Assembly (NCBI GenBank): GCA_016287565.1 | Contig: JAEFAM010000002.1 | Location: 7,648 to 71,647, forward strand | Direction of reading: 5' to 3' | DNA length: 64,000 bases | Source of the DNA: Clostridia bacterium | GTDB lineage: Bacteria > Bacillota > Clostridia > UBA1212 > UBA1255 | Shown: in pieces, positions 12,674 through 57,700 of the stretch | Layout: every line of letters starts with the position of its first letter | Position numbering within the stretch: position 1 is the first letter of the stretch | Position numbers and translations under genes: made by a program | The notes under the pieces: model-generated | The model's input: only the letters and a program-made list of their open reading frames with translations | Databases searched by the model: none | Told to the model about the DNA's origin: nothing

Positions 12674-13507
12674 TCAGTCCGTTTTGAAGTTTTTGTCGCG
12701 GTTCTTAAAATGCTTCACAATCATTTCCACTATCCCGCTTAAGACGGACAACGCAGCCAGCGCGATGATGACTATCATGATCACGCCGCCAGCGGAAGAA
12801 GTGTTGTTCTTGCCCTCTCCCTCCGGAACTTCGAACTTGATGACGTTGCCGTTGTACGTGGGCACCGGCGTGGCGTTCGGATCCCGCGTGACCTCCGGCG
12901 TCCCGGTCGCATCTGCGTCTTCCGTCGCTTCAGGGTCGATTTCGCCCTTCTCTTCCGGGTCGATCGCGCCCGCTTCTTCCGGGTCAATCGCGCCCGTCGC
13001 TTCCGGGTCCATCGCGCCCGTCTCTTCCAGGTCCATCGCACCCGTCGCTTCCGCCAGATCCGTCAATACGGTCTCCGCCTGCCCCGCCGCATCGAGCGCG
13101 GCAACGTCCGCCATCTCCGCCTCAGCGAGCATGGCAACGTCCGCCTTCTCCGCCTGCTCAGCCTCAGAGAGTGGGGCAACGTCCGCCTTCTCCGCCTCAG
13201 CGAGCATGGCAACGTCCGCCTTCTCCGCCTGCTCAGCCTCAGAGAGTGGGGCAACGTCCGCTATCTCCGCCTGCTCTGCCGCAGAGAGTGGGGCAACGTC
13301 CGCTATCTCCGCCTGCGGGATCTCGCCGGCCTCGGCAAATACAGGCGCGTGAGCGGCGGCGAGGCACAGCACGGCAATGACGATCAGCGCGGCAATAAAT
13401 GCCGCTTTCCTGCTGCCGCAATTTGCTGTTTTCCCGAACCAGCGGTGTTTCATAACAGGCACACACCCCCACGGTGGTATTGTACCATCGAAGGCGTTTT
13501 TTGGCAA
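12674..13507 (-). CDS. Secreted/membrane-anchored acidic tandem-repeat protein
   Basis: Signal-like hydrophobic segment (likely start MKHRWFGK at 13453). Repeats ADVAPLSEAEQAEK/ADVAMLAEAE and a C-terminal TM anchor. The repeats are also visible at the DNA level. Confidence 0.55.
   Translation of the reverse strand: MPKNAFDGTIPPWGCVPVMKHRWFGKTANCGSRKAAFIAALIVIAVLCLAAAHAPVFAEAGEIPQAEIADVAPLSAAEQAEIADVAPLSEAEQAEKADVAMLAEAEKADVAPLSEAEQAEKADVAMLAEAEMADVAALDAAGQAETVLTDLAEATGAMDLEETGAMDPEATGAIDPEEAGAIDPEEKGEIDPEATEDADATGTPEVTRDPNATPVPTYNGNVIKFEVPEGEGKNNTSSAGGVIMIVIIALAALSVLSGIVEMIVKHFKNRDKNFKTD
13100..13320. repeat. In-gene tandem DNA repeats (33 plus 42 bp compound unit) that encode the acidic peptide repeats
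   Basis: GCAACGTCCGCCTTCTCCGCCTCAGCGAGCATG alternating with GCAACGTCCGCCTTCTCCGCCTGCTCAGCCTCAGAGAGTGGG. Confidence 0.7.
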
Positions 13508-13539
13508 GGATAAACAGACGAAGAACGGACGGAATTCCT

Positions 13540-13815
13540 CTGTGCAAAGTGATCTTCGCCTGCGGCGAGTGATCTTCGGCCTGACGGCCGAGTGATATTG
13601 CGCGGGGCGCAGTGATATTCGCCATACGGCGAGTGGTGTTGCGCGGCGCGAGCAGCTAAATTCGACTTCGTCGAGCGAAATTGAACCCTGACTGTTTAGC
13701 GGGGCTTTTCAGGGTTCAGCTAAATGCGACTTCGTCGCGCTAAATTCGTGCTGTCACACGAGCTAAATTCCGCATTGCGAGCAGTGAAATTCGACTTCGT
13801 CGAGGAAAATTGATC
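13540..13815. repeat. Array of mini-hairpins separated by the conserved octamer GTGATATT/GCTAAATT (top-strand orientation)
   Basis: About 12 units of roughly 20 nt. Each is an 11-16 nt palindrome (for example CGCCTGCGGCG, TGCGCGGGGCGCA, CGACTTCGTCG) followed by GTGATCTT, GTGATATT, GCTAAATT or GTGAAATT. Confidence 0.8.
13681..13719. repeat. Conserved hairpin class 2 (TTGAACCCTGA-loop-TCAGGGTTCAG) followed by CTAAAT
   Basis: 10-bp stem with a 19-nt loop. The same stem with a different loop occurs at 21208..21245. Confidence 0.7.
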
Positions 13816-13885
13816 TTCGGTCGGAGGGATTGATCTCTTCCTTCGCTCATACCAAAGGCCTTGCTCTGTCTCCGAGAGGCAGATG

Positions 13886-14142
13886 AACGAAAAACGCCCA
13901 CATTTTACCGCTCCTTTCAAATTTCTGGGCGTTTTGAAGAAGGACGCTCTGTCTATTAGCTTTAAACGAGCGGAAAACGCCCACATTTTACCGTTTCTTT
14001 CGAATTTCCGGGCGTTTTGAAGAAGGTGGCGCTGCCTCTGAAGCTTGAAATGAGCGAGAAACGCCCACATTTTACCGTTTCTTTCGAATTTCTGGGCGTT
14101 TTGAAGAAGGTGGCGCTGCCTCTGAGCTTGAAACGAGCGATA
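13886..14142. repeat. Three tandem copies of an 83-bp unit, each with a 9-bp-stem hairpin AAACGCCCA-25 nt-TGGGCGTTT
   Basis: Unit starts at 13892, 13975 and 14058, nearly identical. The track ORF 13720..14190(-) is a translation artefact of this repeat. Confidence 0.8.
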
Positions 14143-14189
14143 ATATAGCTGGACCCTGACGTGCTCGAGCAAAAAGCCGGAAGGGTCCA

Positions 14190-14644
14190 ATTTAGCCGAA
14201 GCAGCAGGCTTCGATTTAGCTGTGAGCGCCAGCGAACAATTTAACTGAAGGCCGCAGGTTCCATTGTCTCTGAAAGCCTGCGGTCTTCAGTTTCACTCGC
14301 GCGCCAGCGCGAATTTAGCTCGGCCGTCAGGCCGAATTTAACTGCCGCAAAGAGGCAATTTAGCTTGACGAAGTCGAATTTAGCTGCTCGCCTCGCAAGC
14401 AATTTCGCTCGCGCGTCAGCGCGAACATCACTCCGCGAAGCGGAATATCACTTGCCCGCAGGGCAAATATCACTCGCGCGCCAGCGCGAATTTAGCTCGG
14501 CCGTCAGGCCGAATATCCCTCGCCGCAGGCGAATATCACTCGGCTCCAGTCTGACGTCAGGCCGAATATCCCTCGCCGCAGGCGAATATCACTCGGCTCC
14601 AGTCTGACGTCAGGCCGAATATCACCGCGGCTCCCACCTGCTCC
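14190..14644. repeat. Array of mini-hairpins with octamers AATTTAGC/AATATCAC (opposite orientation to 13540..13815), ending in 2.5 copies of a 59-bp unit
   Basis: Units such as CTCGCGCGCCAGCGCG-AATTTAGCT, CGGCCGTCAGGCCG-AATATCCCT and CGCCGCAGGCG-AATATCACT. The 59-bp unit contains the palindrome CTGACGTCAG. The array abuts the GH3 stop codon. Confidence 0.8.
14247..14288. repeat. Conserved hairpin class 1 (GAARRCCGCAGGYT-CCATTGTCTCTGAAA-AGCCTGCGGYYTTC)
   Basis: 14-bp stem. The loop is identical to the copy at 26787..26828 and differs by one nucleotide (CCATTGTCACTGAAA) from the copy at 24584..24625. Stem differences between copies are compensatory. Confidence 0.8.
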
Positions 14645-21205: not shown

Positions 21206-21325
21206 TGTTGAACCCTGATATGTTGTCAGAAAATTCAGGGTTCAGCTAAATTCGTCCTGACGAACGAGCGGAATTCGTCCTGGCGGGCGGGCGAAATTGC
21301 TCGCGTGGCGAGCGGCTCTTGTTTA
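21206..21325. repeat. Class-2 hairpin plus a short mini-hairpin/octamer array in the fucI upstream region
   Basis: TTGAACCCTGA-20 nt-TCAGGGTTCAG, then CTAAATT-CGTCCTGACGAACGA-GCGGAATT-CGTCCTGGCGGGCGGGCG-AAATTG-CTCGCGTGGCGAGCGG. Confidence 0.7.
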
Positions 21326-21517
21326 AATCGTTGTATTTCTTTTTGGAACGTCCGCTTCTGACGAATGGGATGAAATCAACAGGTTTGTAAGAAACGCAAG
21401 GCCAAGATCCAGGAATCAAACGCTATTGTCAGCGCTCGATTGACCCTGAACTTGCTTTTCACACCCGCTTGCCGATAAAATATTGACAACGAATGAACGC
21501 GCAGAAAGGGCTCGGAT

Positions 21518-21724
21518 ATGATCAGGAAGATAGACGTGCCCGCAGAGGCCATGGTGGAATTAAAAAGACGCCGAGATCATAATAACCGGATCGATAATCT
21601 ACAGGATCAAAACGTGGATACCACCGTCATTCCGGAAGTATCCGATTCTGTTAAAAACCAGTTGAGAAAAGATTTTAAAAAGGACATGCAAGGATATGCG
21701 ATTTTTTGTCGTCACATTATTTGA
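21518..21724 (+). CDS. Small hypothetical protein (68 aa) in the low-GC leader of the sigma-factor operon
   Basis: ORF only. Weak RBS, no motif. Could be non-coding. Confidence 0.25.
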   Translation: MIRKIDVPAEAMVELKRRRDHNNRIDNLQDQNVDTTVIPEVSDSVKNQLRKDFKKDMQGYAIFCRHII

Positions 21725-21760
21725 AAGGGATCAGGAGACGAAATTATCCAGGGAGAAACA

Positions 21761-22345
21761 ATGACAGGCCTGACAAGTGATATTTACAACAACATAACTG
21801 ACGAAGAGATAATTGCCATGCTCGAGGGACGGGACGAAATGGCAATGGGATTACTGGAATCCAGATTCCGTAATCTTATACGAAGCACTTCTGTCCGGAT
21901 CCTCGGGAATGAGCAGGACGCGGAGGAGTGCGTCAATGATGTGCTGCTGAAGATCTGGAACAGTATTCCGCCGAACAAACCATCGAATTTAAAAGCATAC
22001 GTGGCTGTCGCGGCCAAAAACAACGCGATCGATCGTTATAAAGCGCAGCGGCGCAAGGGCCGGATCCCTCCGGAAAAACTGGAACCGCTGGAAACTGCAG
22101 ACAACATCGGAGTGTTAGATATTGACCGGGATGATAAAGAAACTGTTGCCGCGCTGATAGCCGATTATTTAAACGGAGTCAGCTCTGAAAAAAGAAAGTG
22201 CTTCATTGCCAAATTCTATTTCGGGGCAAAAGATTCCGAGATAGCAAGGAAAGCAGGAGTGCCTGTGGGGACTGTTTCATCGACATTGAGCAGGATGCGT
22301 AAGGAACTGATTAAAAAACTGAAAACGGAAGGAATAAGGTTATGA
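21761..22345 (+). CDS. ECF-subfamily RNA polymerase sigma-70 factor
   Basis: Region 2 (ECVNDVLLKIWNSI) and region 4 HTH (SEIARKAGVPVGTVSSTLSRMRKEL). GGGAGAAACA-ATG ribosome-binding site. Confidence 0.8.
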   Translation: MTGLTSDIYNNITDEEIIAMLEGRDEMAMGLLESRFRNLIRSTSVRILGNEQDAEECVNDVLLKIWNSIPPNKPSNLKAYVAVAAKNNAIDRYKAQRRKGRIPPEKLEPLETADNIGVLDIDRDDKETVAALIADYLNGVSSEKRKCFIAKFYFGAKDSEIARKAGVPVGTVSSTLSRMRKELIKKLKTEGIRL

Positions 22346-24375
22346 AAAACAAAAAGCTGAAAGAATATATGAAATATTTGCCTCAGGAGATGCTGTCTGA
22401 GGCCGAGGAATTTGTTCCGTCCGTCCCAGAAGTGAGTTCTTCATCCGCCGGCAGGGCGAAGAAGTTTTTTGGCTCGACCGCGTTCAGATTTGCTGTCGAA
22501 GCTTTGGTGGTCGCGGCTTCGCTGGCTGCAGGGATAATTATTGCTATCCGGTTAAGTAAACCCGACAGTCAGGATAAAGGAAACGAAACGACGATATCAG
22601 AGGGGACAGAAGCGCCGACGCAGGCCGGGCAGGTTACTGCTGCTCCGACGGAGATTCCGACGATGCTTCCGGCAACACCGGCTGAAACTACTGCCGCCAC
22701 GTCAACGACGACAGTGCCTCCTACCGCGACGCCGACGAAATTGCCTTCTTCGGAGACGCCCGTCGAGGTGGTACCCACTGCGACGTCAACTGTAACAACA
22801 CAGACGACTGTTCCGCCGACAGCGACACCGACAGCCGTACCTCCGACAGCGACATCAACCGCCGCACCGACTGCTTTGCCTCCTACAACTACGCCGACGA
22901 AAGCGCCTTATACCGCTGCTCCGACCGCAGTTCCGCCGACCGCGACCCCGACTGCCGCACCTCCGACGACGGCGCCTGCTACAGTACATCCGGACTGGTT
23001 TTCAGGACCTGAGGCAACGGTAAGGCCAGACCATATTGCCCCGGAAGGAGCAGCGGAATACATTATATTGCCGACGAAAAACACCAGATCGGAGTTGTTC
23101 CCGGATGTTCTTCCGGAATCAGTGAAGCTTGACGGTGACAAAGCATATTTCAACGTCCGCAGCAGGATCGAAACGGTCCTGATAGACGAAACCGGCATGA
23201 TGTACTTTTTAAAAGGCGAAATGTATATCGACCAGATATACCTTTGCGACGTAACGCGGAACGGAAACAGCATAATACTCACAGCGAAAAGCATACATTT
23301 CAGGCTGAAATGCACTTCAAATGAAGATTACAATGCGCTGGTGTTTACGGTAAAATACCAGGAAGACTCAGTGGGCAGTAACGTTCAATGTGTTAAAGAG
23401 TTACTTGCCGGAAAGCTATATTACGATTTCTCCGCAGGAAAATGGAATTCGCTGCTGCTCCCGGGACCGAACGTTGTAAACGAATTGACTCTGAACCTCG
23501 GCGGTACCGAGGGGTATCCTGCCGTAATCGACACCTCGAACGCATCAGGCGGTACATCCTCAATAACCAGCTTCCGTTATGAATTTGACGGTTCCGGAAA
23601 ACTCAGCAGTTATGCTAAAATTTTCGGAGCCTGCAGATATGAGCAATATTTTGAGAACGGGATACTTGTACGCGAATATACGGTGAACAGTTCAGACAGT
23701 TCGACTGAAAAAATATACAATCTGGAAGGGATCGACCTGTATACACGGATCATTAACGGAGACACCGAGACCGTCCGGGAACGGTACAAAGACCGTGCGG
23801 ATCTGGTTTATGAGACAGTCAAGATAAAGAAGAAGGAAAGTGATACCAGATCGACGTATACCGAAAATGTATATTGTTATAAAAACGAGAGCCGTACGGA
23901 AACGTTTCTGTACAAGAATACTGTGACAACGTATTATTCTAACGAATGGCAGACGGTTACAACTAAAACGTATCGTCCTGACGGCCAGGAGCTTAGCAGT
24001 ATTACGGATTTTGGCAACGGGTCGTGTTCCGAGATATTGTATGTGTATCGTGATTCCGGTGTGATCGCAGAAAAAACGACCATAATTACGGAAAACGGCC
24101 TGCGCAATCGGTATACTCTGCTAAGATATAACGAAAAAGGAAAAGCGATCTATTATTTTGATGAGCTTCGATATTCCGACGACGAATTGCACTACTCCGA
24201 AGATCACTATTATGATTCCGGTCGGGCAAGGATCGAAAGAAGATATGCGACCAACGGCGGAATGGATCCGAATGATCCTCCGTACAACTATTACCGTTAT
24301 TATGACGAGGCGGGCAATATAATCAGATCCGGCGTCGTTGCCTACGTCAATGGCGAGTGGATCGAGGATCCGTGA
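22342..24375 (+). CDS. Single-pass membrane protein co-transcribed with the ECF sigma (putative anti-sigma/sensor) with a Pro/Thr-rich linker and an extracytoplasmic YD-repeat (RHS-like) domain
   Basis: ATGA overlap with the sigma gene. One TM helix (FAVEALVVAASLAAGIIIAI). A PT-rich linker of about 170 aa (VPPTATPT repeats). C-terminal YD-type repeats (KTYRPDGQELS, HYYDSGRARIERRY, YRYYDEAGNIIRSG). The second half has lower GC. Confidence 0.65.
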   Translation: MKNKKLKEYMKYLPQEMLSEAEEFVPSVPEVSSSSAGRAKKFFGSTAFRFAVEALVVAASLAAGIIIAIRLSKPDSQDKGNETTISEGTEAPTQAGQVTAAPTEIPTMLPATPAETTAATSTTTVPPTATPTKLPSSETPVEVVPTATSTVTTQTTVPPTATPTAVPPTATSTAAPTALPPTTTPTKAPYTAAPTAVPPTATPTAAPPTTAPATVHPDWFSGPEATVRPDHIAPEGAAEYIILPTKNTRSELFPDVLPESVKLDGDKAYFNVRSRIETVLIDETGMMYFLKGEMYIDQIYLCDVTRNGNSIILTAKSIHFRLKCTSNEDYNALVFTVKYQEDSVGSNVQCVKELLAGKLYYDFSAGKWNSLLLPGPNVVNELTLNLGGTEGYPAVIDTSNASGGTSSITSFRYEFDGSGKLSSYAKIFGACRYEQYFENGILVREYTVNSSDSSTEKIYNLEGIDLYTRIINGDTETVRERYKDRADLVYETVKIKKKESDTRSTYTENVYCYKNESRTETFLYKNTVTTYYSNEWQTVTTKTYRPDGQELSSITDFGNGSCSEILYVYRDSGVIAEKTTIITENGLRNRYTLLRYNEKGKAIYYFDELRYSDDELHYSEDHYYDSGRARIERRYATNGGMDPNDPPYNYYRYYDEAGNIIRSGVVAYVNGEWIEDP

Positions 24376-24469
24376 ATTTGATCTTCTTTCGAGAGGGAAA
24401 CAGCAAATGTTAGTTAAAGGAACAAAAGCGCCGGATCTCACACTTCCGGACCAGAACAAAGTCATTGGT

Positions 24470-24655
24470 ATGCGCGAAGGAAATATTTAGCCGCTCGCCA
24501 CGCGGGCAACATCACTCCGCGAAGCGGAATTTCGCTCGCGCCAAAGCGCGAATTTAGCTGGATCCGCAGGCTTCAATTTAGCTGAAAACCGCAGGCTCCA
24601 TTGTCACTGAAAGCCTGCGGTTTTCAATTTAGCTCGGCATAGAGGGCTATCACTT
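24470..24655. repeat. Mini-hairpin/octamer array plus a class-1 hairpin between convergent genes
   Basis: CCGCTCGCCACGCGGGC-AACATCACT-CCGCGAAGCGG-AATTTCGCT-CGCGCCAAAGCGCG-AATTTAGCT-GGATCCGCAGGCTTC-AATTTAGCT-[class-1 hairpin 24584..24625]-AATTTAGCT. Confidence 0.8.
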
Positions 24656-26329
24656 TTCCCTCTTGTCCTTCTCCCTGATCTCCACGCGGCGGATCTTGCC
24701 GCTGATGGTCTTGGGCAGCTCGTCGACGAATTCCACGACACGGGGGTACTTGTAAGGAGCGGTGGACTTTTTGACGTGGTTCTGCAGCTCCTTCTTAAGC
24801 TCGTCGGAAGCCGTGTAGCCCCTTGCCAGCACCACGGTGGCCTTGACCACCTGGCCCCTGAGTTCGTCGGGGACGCCGGTGATGGCGCATTCCAGCACCG
24901 CGGGGTGGGTCATCAGGGCGGATTCCACTTCGAAGGGGCCGATGCGGTAGCCGGAGCTCTTGATGACGTCGTCCTTGCGGCCAACGTACCAGAAATAGCC
25001 TTCCTCGTCGCGGTAGGCCAGGTCGCAGGTGTGATAATAGCCGTCGTGCCAGACTTCCTCGGTGAGTTCCTTGTCCTTGTAATAGCCCTTGAACATGCCG
25101 ACGGGGCGGCCTTTGGAGGTGTTGATCACGATCTCACCCACTTCGCCGGGATAGCAGGAACGCATATCGTTGTCGACGATATCCACGTCGTAGCAGGGGG
25201 AGGGTTTGCCCATGGAGCCGGGTTTTTTCTTCATCCAGGGGAATGTGCAAACGAGGGCAACGACTTCGGTCTGCCCGTAGCATTCCCGCATCTCGATGCC
25301 GGTGGCCGCCTTGATCTGGTTGAACACTTCCGGATTCAGCGCCTCTCCCGCCACGGTCAATTCCCGGAGCGACGACAGGTCGTAGCTCTTCATATCTTCC
25401 TTCATCATGAAGCGGTACATCGTTGGCGGCGAGCAGAAAGTGGTGAGTTTGTAGTCCTGCATCTTCCGGAGCAGTTTGTTGGGATCGAACTTGTCCATAT
25501 CGTACACGAAAATGGCGGTCTCCCCCAGCCATTGACCGTAAAGCTTGCCCCAGACGGCCTTTGCCCAACCCGTCTCCGCCACCGTCATATGAAGGCCGCC
25601 CTCTTTAACGCTGTGCCAGTAACCGGCGGTGATTATGTGGCCCAGAGGGTAGGCGAAATCGTGTATGACCATCTTGGGATAGCCGGAAGTGCCGGAAGTA
25701 AAATACAGGAGCATGGTGTCGTCGTTGTGCACCGCTTTCTCCCCCTCCGGCCTGGGGAAAACGTCGGAAGCGCTTTCCACGCCCTTGTCGAAATCCAGCC
25801 AGTCGCCTCCCGGGAACTCCCCGTGGCCGCCGGCGGACAATTTAAGCTTCAGCGTGGGCGAGGTCAATTGCGCCTCTTCCACCTGCTTGTAAAAGTCGTG
25901 GTCCGTGGTGGCGATGATCGCCTTCACGTCCGCCCTGTTGAACCTGTAATCCAGGTCCTTCGCCGTCAACAGGTGCGTTGCGGGCACGGCAACGGCTCCG
26001 ATCCTGTGAAGCCCCATCAGCGCGTACCAGAACTGGTAATGGCGCTTCAGCACCAGCACCACGCTGTCGCCCTTCCCGATGCTCAGGCTCGACAGATAAT
26101 TGGCCGCGCGCATCGACAGCTTCGACATCTCGCCAAACGTGAAAGTCCGCTCCGCGCCATGATCGTCGCACCAGACCATTGCCCTGCCGTCCGGATCCTT
26201 CTCCGCCAGCGCGTCCAGCACGTCGTATGCAAAATTAAAATCGTCTGGGACGTTGATCCGCAGATTCGCCTTCATATCCTCGTAAGACGTAAAATCCGCT
26301 CTGTTAACGTACTTCTCAAAAAATGCCAT
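24650..26329 (-). CDS. AMP-forming acyl-CoA synthetase (ACSM/medium-chain fatty-acid-CoA ligase-like)
   Basis: AMP-binding motif YFTSGTSGYPK, YGQTE, and the C-terminal KTISGKIRR lysine motif. Start at ATG 26329 with AGGTGG Shine-Dalgarno. Confidence 0.8.
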   Translation of the reverse strand: MAFFEKYVNRADFTSYEDMKANLRINVPDDFNFAYDVLDALAEKDPDGRAMVWCDDHGAERTFTFGEMSKLSMRAANYLSSLSIGKGDSVVLVLKRHYQFWYALMGLHRIGAVAVPATHLLTAKDLDYRFNRADVKAIIATTDHDFYKQVEEAQLTSPTLKLKLSAGGHGEFPGGDWLDFDKGVESASDVFPRPEGEKAVHNDDTMLLYFTSGTSGYPKMVIHDFAYPLGHIITAGYWHSVKEGGLHMTVAETGWAKAVWGKLYGQWLGETAIFVYDMDKFDPNKLLRKMQDYKLTTFCSPPTMYRFMMKEDMKSYDLSSLRELTVAGEALNPEVFNQIKAATGIEMRECYGQTEVVALVCTFPWMKKKPGSMGKPSPCYDVDIVDNDMRSCYPGEVGEIVINTSKGRPVGMFKGYYKDKELTEEVWHDGYYHTCDLAYRDEEGYFWYVGRKDDVIKSSGYRIGPFEVESALMTHPAVLECAITGVPDELRGQVVKATVVLARGYTASDELKKELQNHVKKSTAPYKYPRVVEFVDELPKTISGKIRRVEIREKDKREK

Positions 26330-26739
26330 CAGAACCACCTTCCATTCCTCGGAGTAAATATGAATCGGACGGAAGTTCCGGGGACAAAAAAACTCGTCTC
26401 AGAAACGAGACGAGGTCAATGACTTCGTTATACCACTCGGAATTCTGTCGGATTCGGTACGCCCCGGCCCTTTTCCTGCTGAGCCTCGCGCACTTAAATC
26501 TTCCGCCTGTCACGGGACGCCCCGGAGCCGCTTACCACCGTCTCCGGCTTCAGCCGCCCGGCTCAGGAGTGATCTGCTTCCGCCCTTCCTCACCGCATTG
26601 CACCAGACTGCGGCTCTCTATAGAGGACAATGGCGGCGCCCGTCTCCGTCAACGCCGTTACGCGAATTATACTCCTCGTTTCCCGGCGGCGCAAGTGGTT
26701 TTTTGCTCGGGACAATACGCGGCGCGCGGAAGGACATGG

Positions 26740-26856
26740 TGCGCATGGCGCGCAGTGATATTGCTCGCGTTGTGAGCAGCGAAATTGAAAACCGCAGGCT
26801 CCATTGTCTCTGAAAGCCTGCGGTTTTCAATTTCACTCGCGCGTCAGCGCGAACGC
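26740..26856. repeat. Class-1 hairpin flanked by inverted octamers, immediately downstream of trkH
   Basis: CAGTGATATTG...GCGAAATT-[GAAAACCGCAGGCT-CCATTGTCTCTGAAA-AGCCTGCGGTTTTC]-AATTTCACT-CGCGCGTCAGCGCG. On the minus strand the hairpin is followed by UUUUC, so it may also act as the trkAH terminator. Confidence 0.75.
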
Positions 26857-28305
26857 TTACTTCCTCCTCCACAGCCCCGGCGACAATGCCAGGATCAGCG
26901 GATATATCTCCAGGCGGCCGAAGAGCATTGACAGAGAAAGCACGATCTTCGAACCCACGGAGTAGAAACTGTAGCCCATATACGGGCCTACCTTGCCCAG
27001 ACCGGGGCCCACGTTGTTGAGGGTGGCCATTGACGCGGTCATATTCGTTATCATGTCGGTATCGGGTTCGAAGAGGCTGAGCAGCAGGAACACGGAGCCC
27101 AGCACGGCGCAATAGAGAACGAAGAAGGAAGTGACGCCGCGGAGGGTGTTGTCGTCCACGCGCCTGCCCTCGAATTTGACCACGCCGACGGAATGAGGAT
27201 GGACCATGTGCCGAAGGTCGCGGCGGATGATCTTGCCCAGCAGTATCACGCGGGAGACCTTGATGCCGCCGGCGGTTGAGCCGGCGCAGCTGCCAACGAA
27301 ATAAAGCATAAACAATACCGCCCTGGAAATGCCGGTCCAGGTGTCGAAATCGGCGGTGGCGAAACCGGTGGTGGTAACGATCGAGGCCACCTGGAAGAAG
27401 GAGGTCCGGAGATTGTCGCCGAAGGTCTGGTACAGGTTATGCATATGTATCGTAATTATTGCCACGCTGCTGCCGATGATGCCCAGATAGAGCCACAGTT
27501 CGCGGCTTTTAAGGGCGGTCCTGATCTTGCCCATTATCACCAGATAGTACAGGTTGAAATTGACGCCGAACATCACCATAAAGATACCTACGACCCACTG
27601 GATATACGGGTTGTAATTCGTGAGGCTGGTGCCGCTGAGGCCGAAGCCGCCGGTACCCGCGGTGCCGAAGGTATATATCAGGCTTTCGAACAGGTCCATG
27701 CCGCCGAAGAGCAGCATTATTGTCTCGACCGCCGACAGGCCTATGTAGAGCAGGTACAGGATCAGGGCGGTCTTTTTGATCTTGGGAACGAACTTGCCGA
27801 AGGTGGGTCCGGGCACTTCCGCTCTCAGGATGTGCACCGAGCCTTCCGTGTCCGAGGGCAGTATGGCCATCATCAGCACGAGAACGCCCATACCTCCGAT
27901 CCAGTGGGTGGCGCTGCGCCAGAACAGCACGCCCTTGCTCATGGTCTCGAATGACGTGACGACGGAGGCGCCGGTGGTGGTAAAACCGCTGGCGGTCTCG
28001 AAAATGGCGTCAATGACTCCCAGTTCCCCAGTAAAAATAAACGGCAGCGCGCCGAACAGCGTCATCGACAGCCAGGCCAGGGCAACGATAACGAACCCTT
28101 CCTTGGCGTATATGGCGCTTCTCCGCTTGCGGCAGATCAGCATCATAAGCGAACCCACGGCGGCGGCAACTGCGGAAGAAAGCAGTATCATCGACGCAGA
28201 CCGCAGCTCGCCGTAGATAAGCGATACTATGGCGGGGATCAGCATCAGCACCGCTTCCGTATCAAGTATCAAACCTAAAGTGTAAAAAACTCTGCGTCTG
28301 TTCAT
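26857..28305 (-). CDS. trkH: Trk/Ktr-type potassium uptake membrane protein
   Basis: Four selectivity-filter-like repeats (GFTTTGA, GTGGFG, TTTGFAT, GGIKV) and multiple TM segments. Confidence 0.85.
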   Translation of the reverse strand: MNRRRVFYTLGLILDTEAVLMLIPAIVSLIYGELRSASMILLSSAVAAAVGSLMMLICRKRRSAIYAKEGFVIVALAWLSMTLFGALPFIFTGELGVIDAIFETASGFTTTGASVVTSFETMSKGVLFWRSATHWIGGMGVLVLMMAILPSDTEGSVHILRAEVPGPTFGKFVPKIKKTALILYLLYIGLSAVETIMLLFGGMDLFESLIYTFGTAGTGGFGLSGTSLTNYNPYIQWVVGIFMVMFGVNFNLYYLVIMGKIRTALKSRELWLYLGIIGSSVAIITIHMHNLYQTFGDNLRTSFFQVASIVTTTGFATADFDTWTGISRAVLFMLYFVGSCAGSTAGGIKVSRVILLGKIIRRDLRHMVHPHSVGVVKFEGRRVDDNTLRGVTSFFVLYCAVLGSVFLLLSLFEPDTDMITNMTASMATLNNVGPGLGKVGPYMGYSFYSVGSKIVLSLSMLFGRLEIYPLILALSPGLWRRK

Positions 28306-38626: not shown

Positions 38627-38749
38627 TACTCTTCTCCGATTTTAAAAACATTAAAAAAGCGATGGCATAAAACCACGGATAGGATTTTACCACATTCAGG
38701 GAGGTAAAACAACCCTTTTTTCAATTTGAAAAACCGGCAGATTTGTGCT

Positions 38750-39275
38750 AAATTTAGGGGCGGGGCGCAGTGATATTCTGCTTCGCAGAGTGATATTGCG
38801 CGGGGCGCAGTGATATTGTGCTTCGCACAGCTAAATTACTCGCTTGCGCTCGCAGCTAAATTGCGTGCAGGGCACGCAGCTAAATCGAAGCCGTCCGGCT
38901 TCGGCTAAATTGACCTTCGGTCAGCTAAGCTCGGTTGCGGCGAGTGATATTGCGCGAAGCGCAGTGATATTCTGCTTCGCAGAGTGATATTGCGCGGGGC
39001 GCAGTGATATTCTGCTTCGCAGAGTGATATTGCGCGGGGCACAGTGATATTGTGCTTCGCACAGCTAAATTACTCGCTTGCGCTCGCAGCTAAATTGCGT
39101 GCAGGGCAAATTAAGCTGTTCGCGCCAGCGAACGATATCACTCGGCGAAGCCGAACATCACTCGCACGCAAGTGCGAATATCACTGCGAGTGTTAACGAG
39201 CAATATCACTTGGCGTAGCCGAACATCACTCGCACGCCGGTGCGAATATCACTGCTCATACCAGCGAGCAACAGG
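38750..39275. repeat. Large mini-hairpin/octamer array that switches orientation near 39115 (GTGATATT/GCTAAATT units, then GATATCACT/GAACATCACT units)
   Basis: Units of about 20 nt: TGCGCGGGGCGCA-GTGATATT, CTGCTTCGCAG-A-GTGATATT, GTGCTTCGCAC-AGCTAAATT and so on. A 150-bp block (38760-38910) is duplicated at 38950-39110. The right arm reads CGGCGAAGCCG-AACATCACT, CGCACGCAAGTGCG-AATATCACT. Confidence 0.8.
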
Positions 39276-57596: not shown

Positions 57597-57608
57597 CACT
57601 CCCGGCCT

Positions 57609-57697
57609 GGAGAAATCGCGTAGTTGGTCGAGCGCGCACGACTGGAAATCGTGTAACCGTCAGAAGCGGTTCGAGGGTTCGAATCCCTCTTTCTCCG
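57609..57697 (+). tRNA. tRNA-Ser (anticodon GGA)
   Basis: Acceptor GGAGAAA/TTTCTCC, anticodon stem CACGA/TCGTG with loop CTGGAAA, long variable arm ACCGTCAGAAGCGGT, T-arm GAGGG-TTCGAAT-CCCTC, discriminator G, no encoded CCA. Confidence 0.9.
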
Positions 57698-57700
57698 TAC

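Follow-up and report, generated by a model that had tools for sequence, protein, structure and literature searches.

Tandem 83/84-bp units between converging Gut-1 hairpin arrays: a possible core of a dispersed composite repeat in Clostridia

The 64,000 nucleotides of DNA analysed here (the window) are an ordinary chromosome segment from an uncultured gut lineage of Clostridia. The genes on it include alanine racemase, MurB, Rho, TrkAH and upp, together with capsule genes and glycosidases. In one intergenic spacer of this segment, two arrays of short hairpins converge on a block of three tandem repeats. What is this block, and how does it vary? From the sequence alone, it had been read as a possible cargo, or as a replication or recombination site, of a non-autonomous mobile element (the sequence-only reading).

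We put the probability at about 0.5 that the triplet is the copy-number-variable core of a dispersed, non-coding composite repeat, similar to REP/BIME or foldback elements, which is built on arms of the Gut-1 motif. The parts of this explanation differ in strength. The identity of the block and its mode of variation can be stated with considerable confidence. That cores spread by recombination rather than by transposition is a tentative conclusion which falls a little short of an even bet, and a terminator-like effect of the units, which their sequence might suggest, appears doubtful.

Anatomy of the block and its arms

The locus (locus A) is a spacer of 1.19 kb that runs from the stop codon of a GH3 gene (14645, -) to the promoter of the next gene, which encodes a secreted repeat protein (TTGCCA-17-TACAAT, 13507-13479, -). 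The block occupies 13875-14141 and consists of three tandem units of 83, 84 and 84 bp, followed by a partial fourth (Table 1). Tandem Repeats Finder reported 3.0 copies with a period of 84 and 88% matches at 13888-14140, and a repeat search gave in-register copies at 13875-13958, 13958-14041 and 14042-14125, with a spacing of 83 and 84. With three units in register and stems of 9-10 bp, the triplicated, hairpin-carrying repeat of about 83 bp described in the sequence-only reading was recovered. A 52-nt core of the unit is matched three times with up to 3 mismatches and nowhere else in the window; shuffled sequences are expected to give 0 matches.

Each unit comprises, in this order, an A-tract (A4-5 in the window), a stem of 9-10 bp, a T-rich loop of 25 nt, the second stem arm and a T-tract. 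In unit 1, the arm AAAACGCCCA pairs with TGGGCGTTTT. The loop measures 25 nt in all three units of the window and TGAAGAAGG comes next in all three, as had been proposed; the proposed 3' arm does not hold throughout, since in unit 2 it begins with C and not with T. Extended by the A at 14125 and by the beginning of the following linker, which overlaps it, the stub of the fourth unit reads AGCTTGAAACGAGCGATAA.

Table 1. Coordinates of the array and core features (positions in the window unless the contig L060 of the sister lineage is named)
Feature	Position	Strand	Description
Left arm (arm 1)	13548-13811	+	12 nine-nt linkers of AGTGATATT / AGCTAAATT types, short GC-rich hairpins between them
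Long hairpin L1, left arm	13683-13718	+	
Arm-to-core junction	13812-13874	+	hairpin GATCTTCGGTC, degenerate linker GGAGGGATT, spacer with small hairpin CTGTCTC-CGA-GAGGCAG
Unit 1	13875-13957	+	83 bp, most divergent; stem 13891-13900 / 13926-13935, loop 13901-13925
Unit 2	13958-14041	+	84 bp; stem 13974-13983 / 14009-14018; C at 14009 gives an A.C mismatch at the loop end
Unit 3	14042-14125	+	84 bp, canonical; stem 14059-14067 / 14093-14101
Truncated fourth unit	14126-14141	+	GCTTGAAACGAGCGAT, conserved core end; repeat search gives 19 nt, 14125-14143
Right arm (arm 2)	14142-14626	-	19 linkers, sense on - strand; from segmentation, Tandem Repeats Finder and Gut-1 match
Long hairpin L1', right arm	14151-14189		
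Long hairpin L2, right arm	14247-14292		
Locus B left arm	21211-21320	+	L1 and 3 linkers, inverted copy of the locus B right arm
Locus B right arm	24480-24640	-	L2 and 7 linkers
Locus C	26745-26860		minimal two-armed array around hairpin L2 (26787-26829)
Locus D	38746-39262		two-armed, 17 linkers on +, 7 on -, without core
Sister locus B core	L060 5439-5599	+	2 units; spacer between fucI and AMP-binding-enzyme gene; inverted relative to locus A
Sister locus C core	L060 2361-2606	-	3 units; spacer between TrkH and AMP-binding-enzyme gene

The arms consist of hairpin units of ~21 nt and were segmented by cutting the sequence at 9-nt linkers of two types. Together with a spacer of ~60 nt on its left, the block fills the gap between the converging arms, so that its suggested position at the symmetry centre of inverted arrays was confirmed (12 linkers on the + strand to the left, 19 on the - strand to the right). 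The right arm begins 18 nt past the GH3 stop codon. The two arms are inverted copies of each other, with 52 nt at 88% complementarity. Over all arrays of the window, end-anchored stems of at least 4 bp were found in 40 of 55 short inter-linker segments (2 expected), with 41 distinct sequences, and the hairpins are thus retained while their sequence changes. Arms, spacer, tandem core and long hairpins amount to the modular, hierarchical organisation that had been postulated. The arms grow by segmental tandem duplication. A perfect internal duplication of 53 bp (x 2.3) is present in the right arm at 14502-14623, and in the strain L002 a stretch of 129 bp with five hairpin units is duplicated, inserted after position 13657 of the window.

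A segment of the right arm, 14397-14475 (-), matches the Rfam model of Gut-1 (RF01706) with 66.1 bits, compared with a gathering score of 50. Five further segments of locus A give sub-threshold matches; those left of the repeat (13527-13603, 13610-13686 and 13737-13815) lie on the + strand and those right of it on the - strand. Other arm segments score 24-48 bits. Inside 13875-14141, the Gut-1 model gave no match at E values up to 10. Five array loci lie within 26 kb of the window. Hairpins recur among them, L1 and L2 being common to several loci. The arms of locus B align in inverted orientation over their inner ~90 nt, of which the innermost ~22 nt are nearly identical, and locus D contains two Gut-1 matches above the gathering score (54.2 and 51.5 bits). 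No arrays or units were found in the 8.8 kb to the left of the window.

Folding energies of the unit hairpin range from -12 to -14 kcal/mol for both strands. When one unit was shuffled, 13 of 3000 permutations gave a perfect stem of 9 bp or more, a frequency that holds for a single unit as the three copies are not independent, and single whole units fold no better than shuffles (z -1.8 to +0.5). When 16 units were compared, 94.4% of the stem cells were paired, with nine cells unpaired. Six of the ten stem pairs never vary, and one pair is G-C in 9 units, A-U in 3 and A.C in 4. Covariation is weak: the paired percentage was exceeded by 2 of 500 shuffles, and the number of changes on both sides was reached by 64 of 500. 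Wobble pairs give conflicting indications of the strand of a putative RNA, with G.U on the + strand at the outermost pair and on the - strand at the inner variable pair. Conserved parts of the unit are A3-5, the stem CGCCCA/TGGGCG, the 25-nt T-rich loop, T4 and GAAGAAG; the A tract, the T tract and GAAGAAG are invariant over the 16 units. The loop drifts in sequence at a constant length of 25 nt (23 in one unit). Stem arms and GAAGAAG together show about half the diversity of the remaining unit, a degree of conservation equalled by 427 of 5000 random blocks.

In the unit, A/T content is most strongly periodic at 10.5 bp (8th harmonic), a strength reached by 25 of 5000 shuffles of a single consensus, and the unit length of 83-84 bp corresponds to 8 helical turns. 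In the arms of the array loci the A/T period is ~21 bp, while linkers are most often spaced at 20 bp rather than 21. Judging from these periods, the AT-rich patches in unit and arms would lie roughly on one face of the helix.

Unit number and core content in related genomes

Contigs carrying identical flanking proteins represent near-identical strains, of which L001-L003 and L017 are 99.8-99.97% identical to the window over ~21 kb. The window, L003 and L017 have three units and L001/L016 and L002 have four, a difference to be read with the proviso that short-read assembly may have collapsed the most similar units; the extra unit of the four-unit strains carries two private SNPs. The remaining large indels among these strains are the 129-bp duplication in the left arm of L002 and a 75-bp unit in the repeat-protein gene, and every one of the large indels falls in tandem repeats. 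Within the ~73 kb of the window's genome that were examined, a single core was seen in its own lineage.

A sister lineage was reached via a GH3 variant of the same 90% cluster. It is represented by a contig of 87.6 kb (L059, L060), whose flanking genes share 89.6-98% nucleotide identity with those of the window. In the sister lineage, locus A (L059) is built in the same way: its arms comprise 15 and 16 linkers, its core 7 units, and five of the six periods are 83 bp; the internal order of the sister arrays rests on one assembly, and metagenome contigs can mis-join repeats. With a profile of the unit, two more cores were found on this contig, each between converging arms (Table 1). The sequence-only reading had expected that unit number would vary between strains and that further genomic copies would exist. 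Both proved to be so: the assemblies carry 3, 4 or 7 units, and the two additional cores, one of them inverted, are likewise intergenic.

The same sites are occupied in both lineages, but their content differs, with three cores in the sister lineage. At loci B and C, flanks that are 96-98% identical enclose an inner 0.75-3.3 kb that has been replaced. At locus B, the window has a sigma/anti-sigma cassette of 3.2 kb where the sister lineage has 754 bp of arms with a 2-unit core and no cassette; at locus C, a mini-array of 88 bp in the window compares with 749 bp of arms and a 3-unit core. In all four cores (locus A of the window and loci A, B and C of the sister lineage) the order is fixed, i.e. 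sense arm, GAYCTTCGGTC hairpin, conserved spacer and units in one direction. The arm-to-core junction and the junction at the core end are also conserved in all four. Relative to the host genes the cores lie in either orientation, whereas their polarity relative to arm 1 is constant.

Similarity among units follows their place within the core rather than the locus they come from. The first units from A, B and C resemble one another at 86-93% and make up a separate subtype; for the last units of B and C the figure is 85%. This position-wise clustering shows that whole cores were copied, i.e. that they are paralogous. Between unit 3 of the window and unit 5 of the sister lineage the identity is 99%, compared with differences of 7-10% in the flanking genes. 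The identity between the window and L060 is mosaic, with 89.6% to the left of locus A, 92.7% from GH3 to fucI and 96-98% around B and C, a pattern that suggests recombination between the lineages.

In a relative with 69% protein identity, the orthologous spacer is ~200 bp long, with a conserved promoter and no arrays. When the unit was compared with this empty spacer, only a 12-mer in inverted orientation was shared (E 0.18, not significant). Relatives at ~55% identity yielded 35 kb without Gut-1, with synteny held on one side only. The exact 19-mer of the unit, searched in GTDB species genomes, JGI metagenome contigs and IMG/VR, gave five chance matches in unrelated genes; these collections did not return the locus itself, and this search is therefore silent on copies in the source genome. 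A blastn search of plasmids and phages with the whole locus gave no match, which rules out that the block derives from either.

Competing explanations of the block

The recurrence of the same core at other intergenic sites of the sister lineage, in either orientation and in 2-7 copies, identifies the block as the centre piece of a composite and not as a one-off repeat. We picture an element that consists of a sense Gut-1 arm, a spacer of ~60-75 nt, n units, an end junction and an arm in the opposite orientation. Its unit number would change by slipped-strand mispairing or unequal crossing-over. Homologous recombination (gene conversion) via the arms would be the main route by which cores pass from one array site to another or are replaced; the arms can align in either orientation because they are inverted copies of the same short units. 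Recombination or gene conversion best fits the observation of identical sites with different content, either orientation and fixed polarity. Since the block is integral to the composite and its polarity is fixed relative to one arm, "cargo" is the wrong word for it. A replication site also finds no support: the cumulative GC skew declines steadily throughout the window without turning at the locus, and thus gives no origin signal there.

Parallels of such a composite are found among extragenic palindromes. The REP elements and BIMEs of Enterobacteria are short extragenic hairpins in mosaic clusters that occupy spacers behind genes, in which a distinct central motif lies between inverted hairpins and whose content varies between strains. 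Common to both are clustered, extragenic, imperfect palindromes in mosaic arrays, with modules that recur at many intergenic loci. The arrays described here differ by their ~21-nt units, in which the linkers stay constant and the stems vary greatly, by a centre that is an 84-bp tandem array, and by hairpins that are co-oriented within an arm instead of alternating. Their linkers are of the AGTGATATT / AGCTAAATT types with no GTAG motif, and no gene for a RAYT (Y1 HUH transposase) was present among the 20 window proteins scanned.

It is somewhat unlikely that the block is simply a neutral minisatellite, in which a piece of the ancestral spacer was amplified by slippage and hitch-hikes in a recombination-prone repeat cluster. 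Such an origin would agree with the presence or absence of the block in close lineages whose flanking housekeeping genes are unchanged, with edge units that are the most diverged, as unequal crossing-over predicts, and with the thermodynamically unremarkable folding of single units. However, the canonical unit is 99% identical across lineages in spite of the divergence of the flanking genes, core polarity and junctions are fixed, and the lower diversity of stem arms and GAAGAAG also argues against neutrality, to the extent that the random blocks quoted above allow. MIRU VNTRs (mycobacterial interspersed repetitive units) are comparable in that they are tandem intergenic units of 40-100 bp at several loci with copy-number polymorphism (here 2, 3, 4 or 7 units at three loci). 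They differ in that MIRUs lie inside operons and carry small ORFs that overlap their neighbours; the present block is embedded in hairpin arrays, contains no ORF because a period of 83 bp, which is not a multiple of 3, breaks the frame, and shows no coupling either to the stop of GH3 or to the start of the gene that follows.

A non-autonomous element of the MITE or foldback type, with the arms as terminal inverted repeats, a transposase encoded elsewhere and the core carried along, seems unlikely to us. The transposase might possibly resemble the REP-associated tyrosine (RAYT) enzymes and act on single-stranded DNA hairpins. The earlier proposal of a mobile element stands insofar as further cores exist in the sister lineage and were copied whole: complete composites are found at three of its sites in both orientations, an empty site is seen in the relative with 69% identity and nowhere else, near-identical two-armed copies occur at several human-gut loci in the Gut-1 seed alignment, and the arms of locus B are mutually inverted copies. 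As in Drosophila FB and the Neisseria Correia elements, inverted arms of short tandem subrepeats, which form terminal inverted repeats, surround a variable centre, and the elements are non-coding and dispersed in either orientation. What finds no support is the mechanism. Target-site duplications, anticipated at the outer borders (about 13540 and 14644), were absent there; the best shared word is a 5-mer that does not adjoin the ends and is at chance level (903 of 2000 shuffles). The terminal sequence is not consistent across loci and no defined termini can be given, the 20 window proteins scanned include no transposase, recombinase or RAYT, and the arms vary by internal duplication (129 bp in L002, the perfect 53-bp repeat). 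Moreover, the two lineages agree in which sites are occupied and differ only in what occupies them, which is better accounted for by recombination between arrays than by fresh transposition.

What the units might do for the host is a separate matter, with a hairpin that acts as a transcription barrier, a bent DNA-protein site, or no effect as candidates. With less support than the steps given above, the conserved hairpin may act as a symmetric barrier to transcripts that arrive from either arm, in the form of a weak bidirectional terminator or a 3'-end hairpin. The symmetric succession of A-tract, GC-rich stem and T-tract, and the position of the block at the meeting point of the converging arms, are reminiscent of bidirectional intrinsic terminators. 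In contrast to these, the unit has a loop of 25 nt, only 5 G-C pairs and a T run of 4-5, compared with loops of 3-8 nt and U-tracts of at least 5-6 in intrinsic terminators, and a terminator scan of the window called none at the unit hairpins; the clear terminators of the window have 4-nt loops and T6-7.

The constant loop length, the conserved stem arms and the 10.5-bp periodicity fit a role at the DNA level at least as well as an RNA hairpin. In that case AAAACGCC and GGCGTTTT would be inverted half-sites at a fixed spacing and the phased T-tracts would bend the DNA, possibly for a dimeric or nucleoid-associated protein, by analogy with the IHF- and gyrase-binding centres of E. coli BIMEs. 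This would explain why the stem arms are conserved in sequence rather than covarying, why loop length is fixed (25 nt, 23 once) while loop sequence drifts, and why a 10.5-bp A/T periodicity dominates in a unit of eight helical turns with arms of ~21 bp. Against it stand the lack of a candidate protein, the commonest linker spacing of 20 bp, the fact that tandem arrays homogenise their sequence anyway, and the derivation of the periodicity from a single consensus; we regard such a site as improbable.

Returning to the composite repeat with a variable core, a bolder version would take the Gut-1 arrays to be the arms of a new class of bacterial foldback-like element, not small-RNA genes, with quasi-palindromic arms that turn the centre into a "landing pad" for recombination. 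This landing pad would hold nothing at D, a single hairpin at C, the tandem 84-bp core at A and a gene cassette at B. We consider this version a long shot; if true, the element would swap intergenic content, even genes, between sites and lineages.

That the units are tandem small-RNA genes, each with its own promoter and terminator, is very improbable: every unit ends in a hairpin and a U-tract and Rfam lists Gut-1 as an sRNA, but no promoter-like site was found on either strand within the block, Rfam searches of the 83/84-bp units (13875-14141) returned no family above noise, only snoRNA and IRE noise matches, and the orientation to host genes varies. A coding repeat with a 28-residue peptide per unit (SEKRPHFTVSFEFLGVLKKVALPLKLEM) is effectively refuted, since a period of 83 bp, which applies to the first repeat interval of the window and to five of six in the sister lineage, breaks the frame. 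This frame is open across units 2-3, for 43 aa in the window and for 71 aa in L002, with the 71-aa ORF called in one assembly, and the two SNPs of the extra unit are synonymous in it; besides, there are 18 non-synonymous and 9 synonymous differences with no third-position excess, no ribosome-binding site is present, and 5.8 billion protein clusters contained no match to the translation of either strand.

Gut-1 arrays elsewhere and further features of the window

Gut-1 was published as a 77-nt window with three hairpins that occurs in human-gut sequences, with nothing further and with neither function nor context described (Weinberg et al. 2010, PMC2864571). We found no literature on the motif after this discovery paper, and Rfam files it as an sRNA. 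Its seed alignment contains several near-identical human-gut loci in which a sense array is followed by an inverted array, the same arrangement as here, and the right arm at locus A and the two matches at locus D place our arrays in this family. They differ by having up to 19 units in converging pairs and an 83/84-bp core that is absent from the Rfam model.

An orphan motif since 2010, Gut-1 thereby obtains an anatomy of long converging arms, a conserved spacer and a variable tandem core. It also obtains a dynamics, in which sites shared by lineages that are 90-98% identical differ in content and, at one of them, a sigma/anti-sigma cassette takes the place of the core. This raises testable questions, i.e. 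whether the core is a transcript end or protein-bound bent DNA and whether the arms are substrates of recombination. The repeat family probably breaks short-read assemblies of rumen and gut Clostridia, and even with no benefit to the host the element is a useful high-resolution strain marker (VNTR). The related contigs come from sample sets of ruminant-gut metagenome surveys.

A scan of IMG/VR for three consecutive linkers gave 38 matches, 37 of which were ordinary tandem repeats and one a genuine two-armed array. The latter lies at 1375-1559 of a phage-like contig of 4.2 kb (L020, UViG_3300018495_002688) and has a central hairpin TTATTCGCT...AGCGAATAA. The ORF directly before it resembles, by eye, a head-tail connector gene.

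Several features of the arrays in the window may be recorded. Linkers of the form AATATCACT, e.g. at 14444-14452, contain the heptad WATCACW, and a second linker class, AATTTAGCT, is devoid of it. WATCACW repeats are the binding sites of the omega repressor encoded by inc18 plasmids, which may offer a lead for the AATATCACT linkers. Directly before the sense arm of locus D lies a promoter-like sequence, TTGAAA-17-TAAATT with an upstream TG (38726-38754, +), whose -10 element is the linker motif GCTAAATT. Weaker promoter-like matches occur in the hairpins L1 (21223-21252, +) and L2 (24627-24600, - and 26830-26803, -). The arms of locus B enclose a cassette of 3.2 kb (~21330-24480; segment 21206-24493) with a GC content of 0.46-0.54, compared with ~0.58. 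Its products are a protein of 68 aa, an ECF sigma factor (21761-22345) and a 677-aa membrane protein that resembles anti-sigma factors and contains a Pro/Thr-rich linker.

Among the neighbouring genes, that for the secreted acidic protein next to locus A (12674-13453, -) contains tandem repeats of 24, 33, 42 and 75 nt (12922-13316), and assemblies differ in the length of its product, which is 259 aa, 234 aa (L017, L058) or, in the sister lineage, 187 aa. The sole tRNA of the window is tRNA-Ser (GGA) at 57608-57698 (+). A T-box leader at 26403-26661 (-) reaches 66.5 bits where the Rfam gathering score is 93, and includes a canonical terminator (26414-26393). The gene downstream of this leader encodes an AMP-binding enzyme (24650-26338) and not an aminoacyl-tRNA synthetase.
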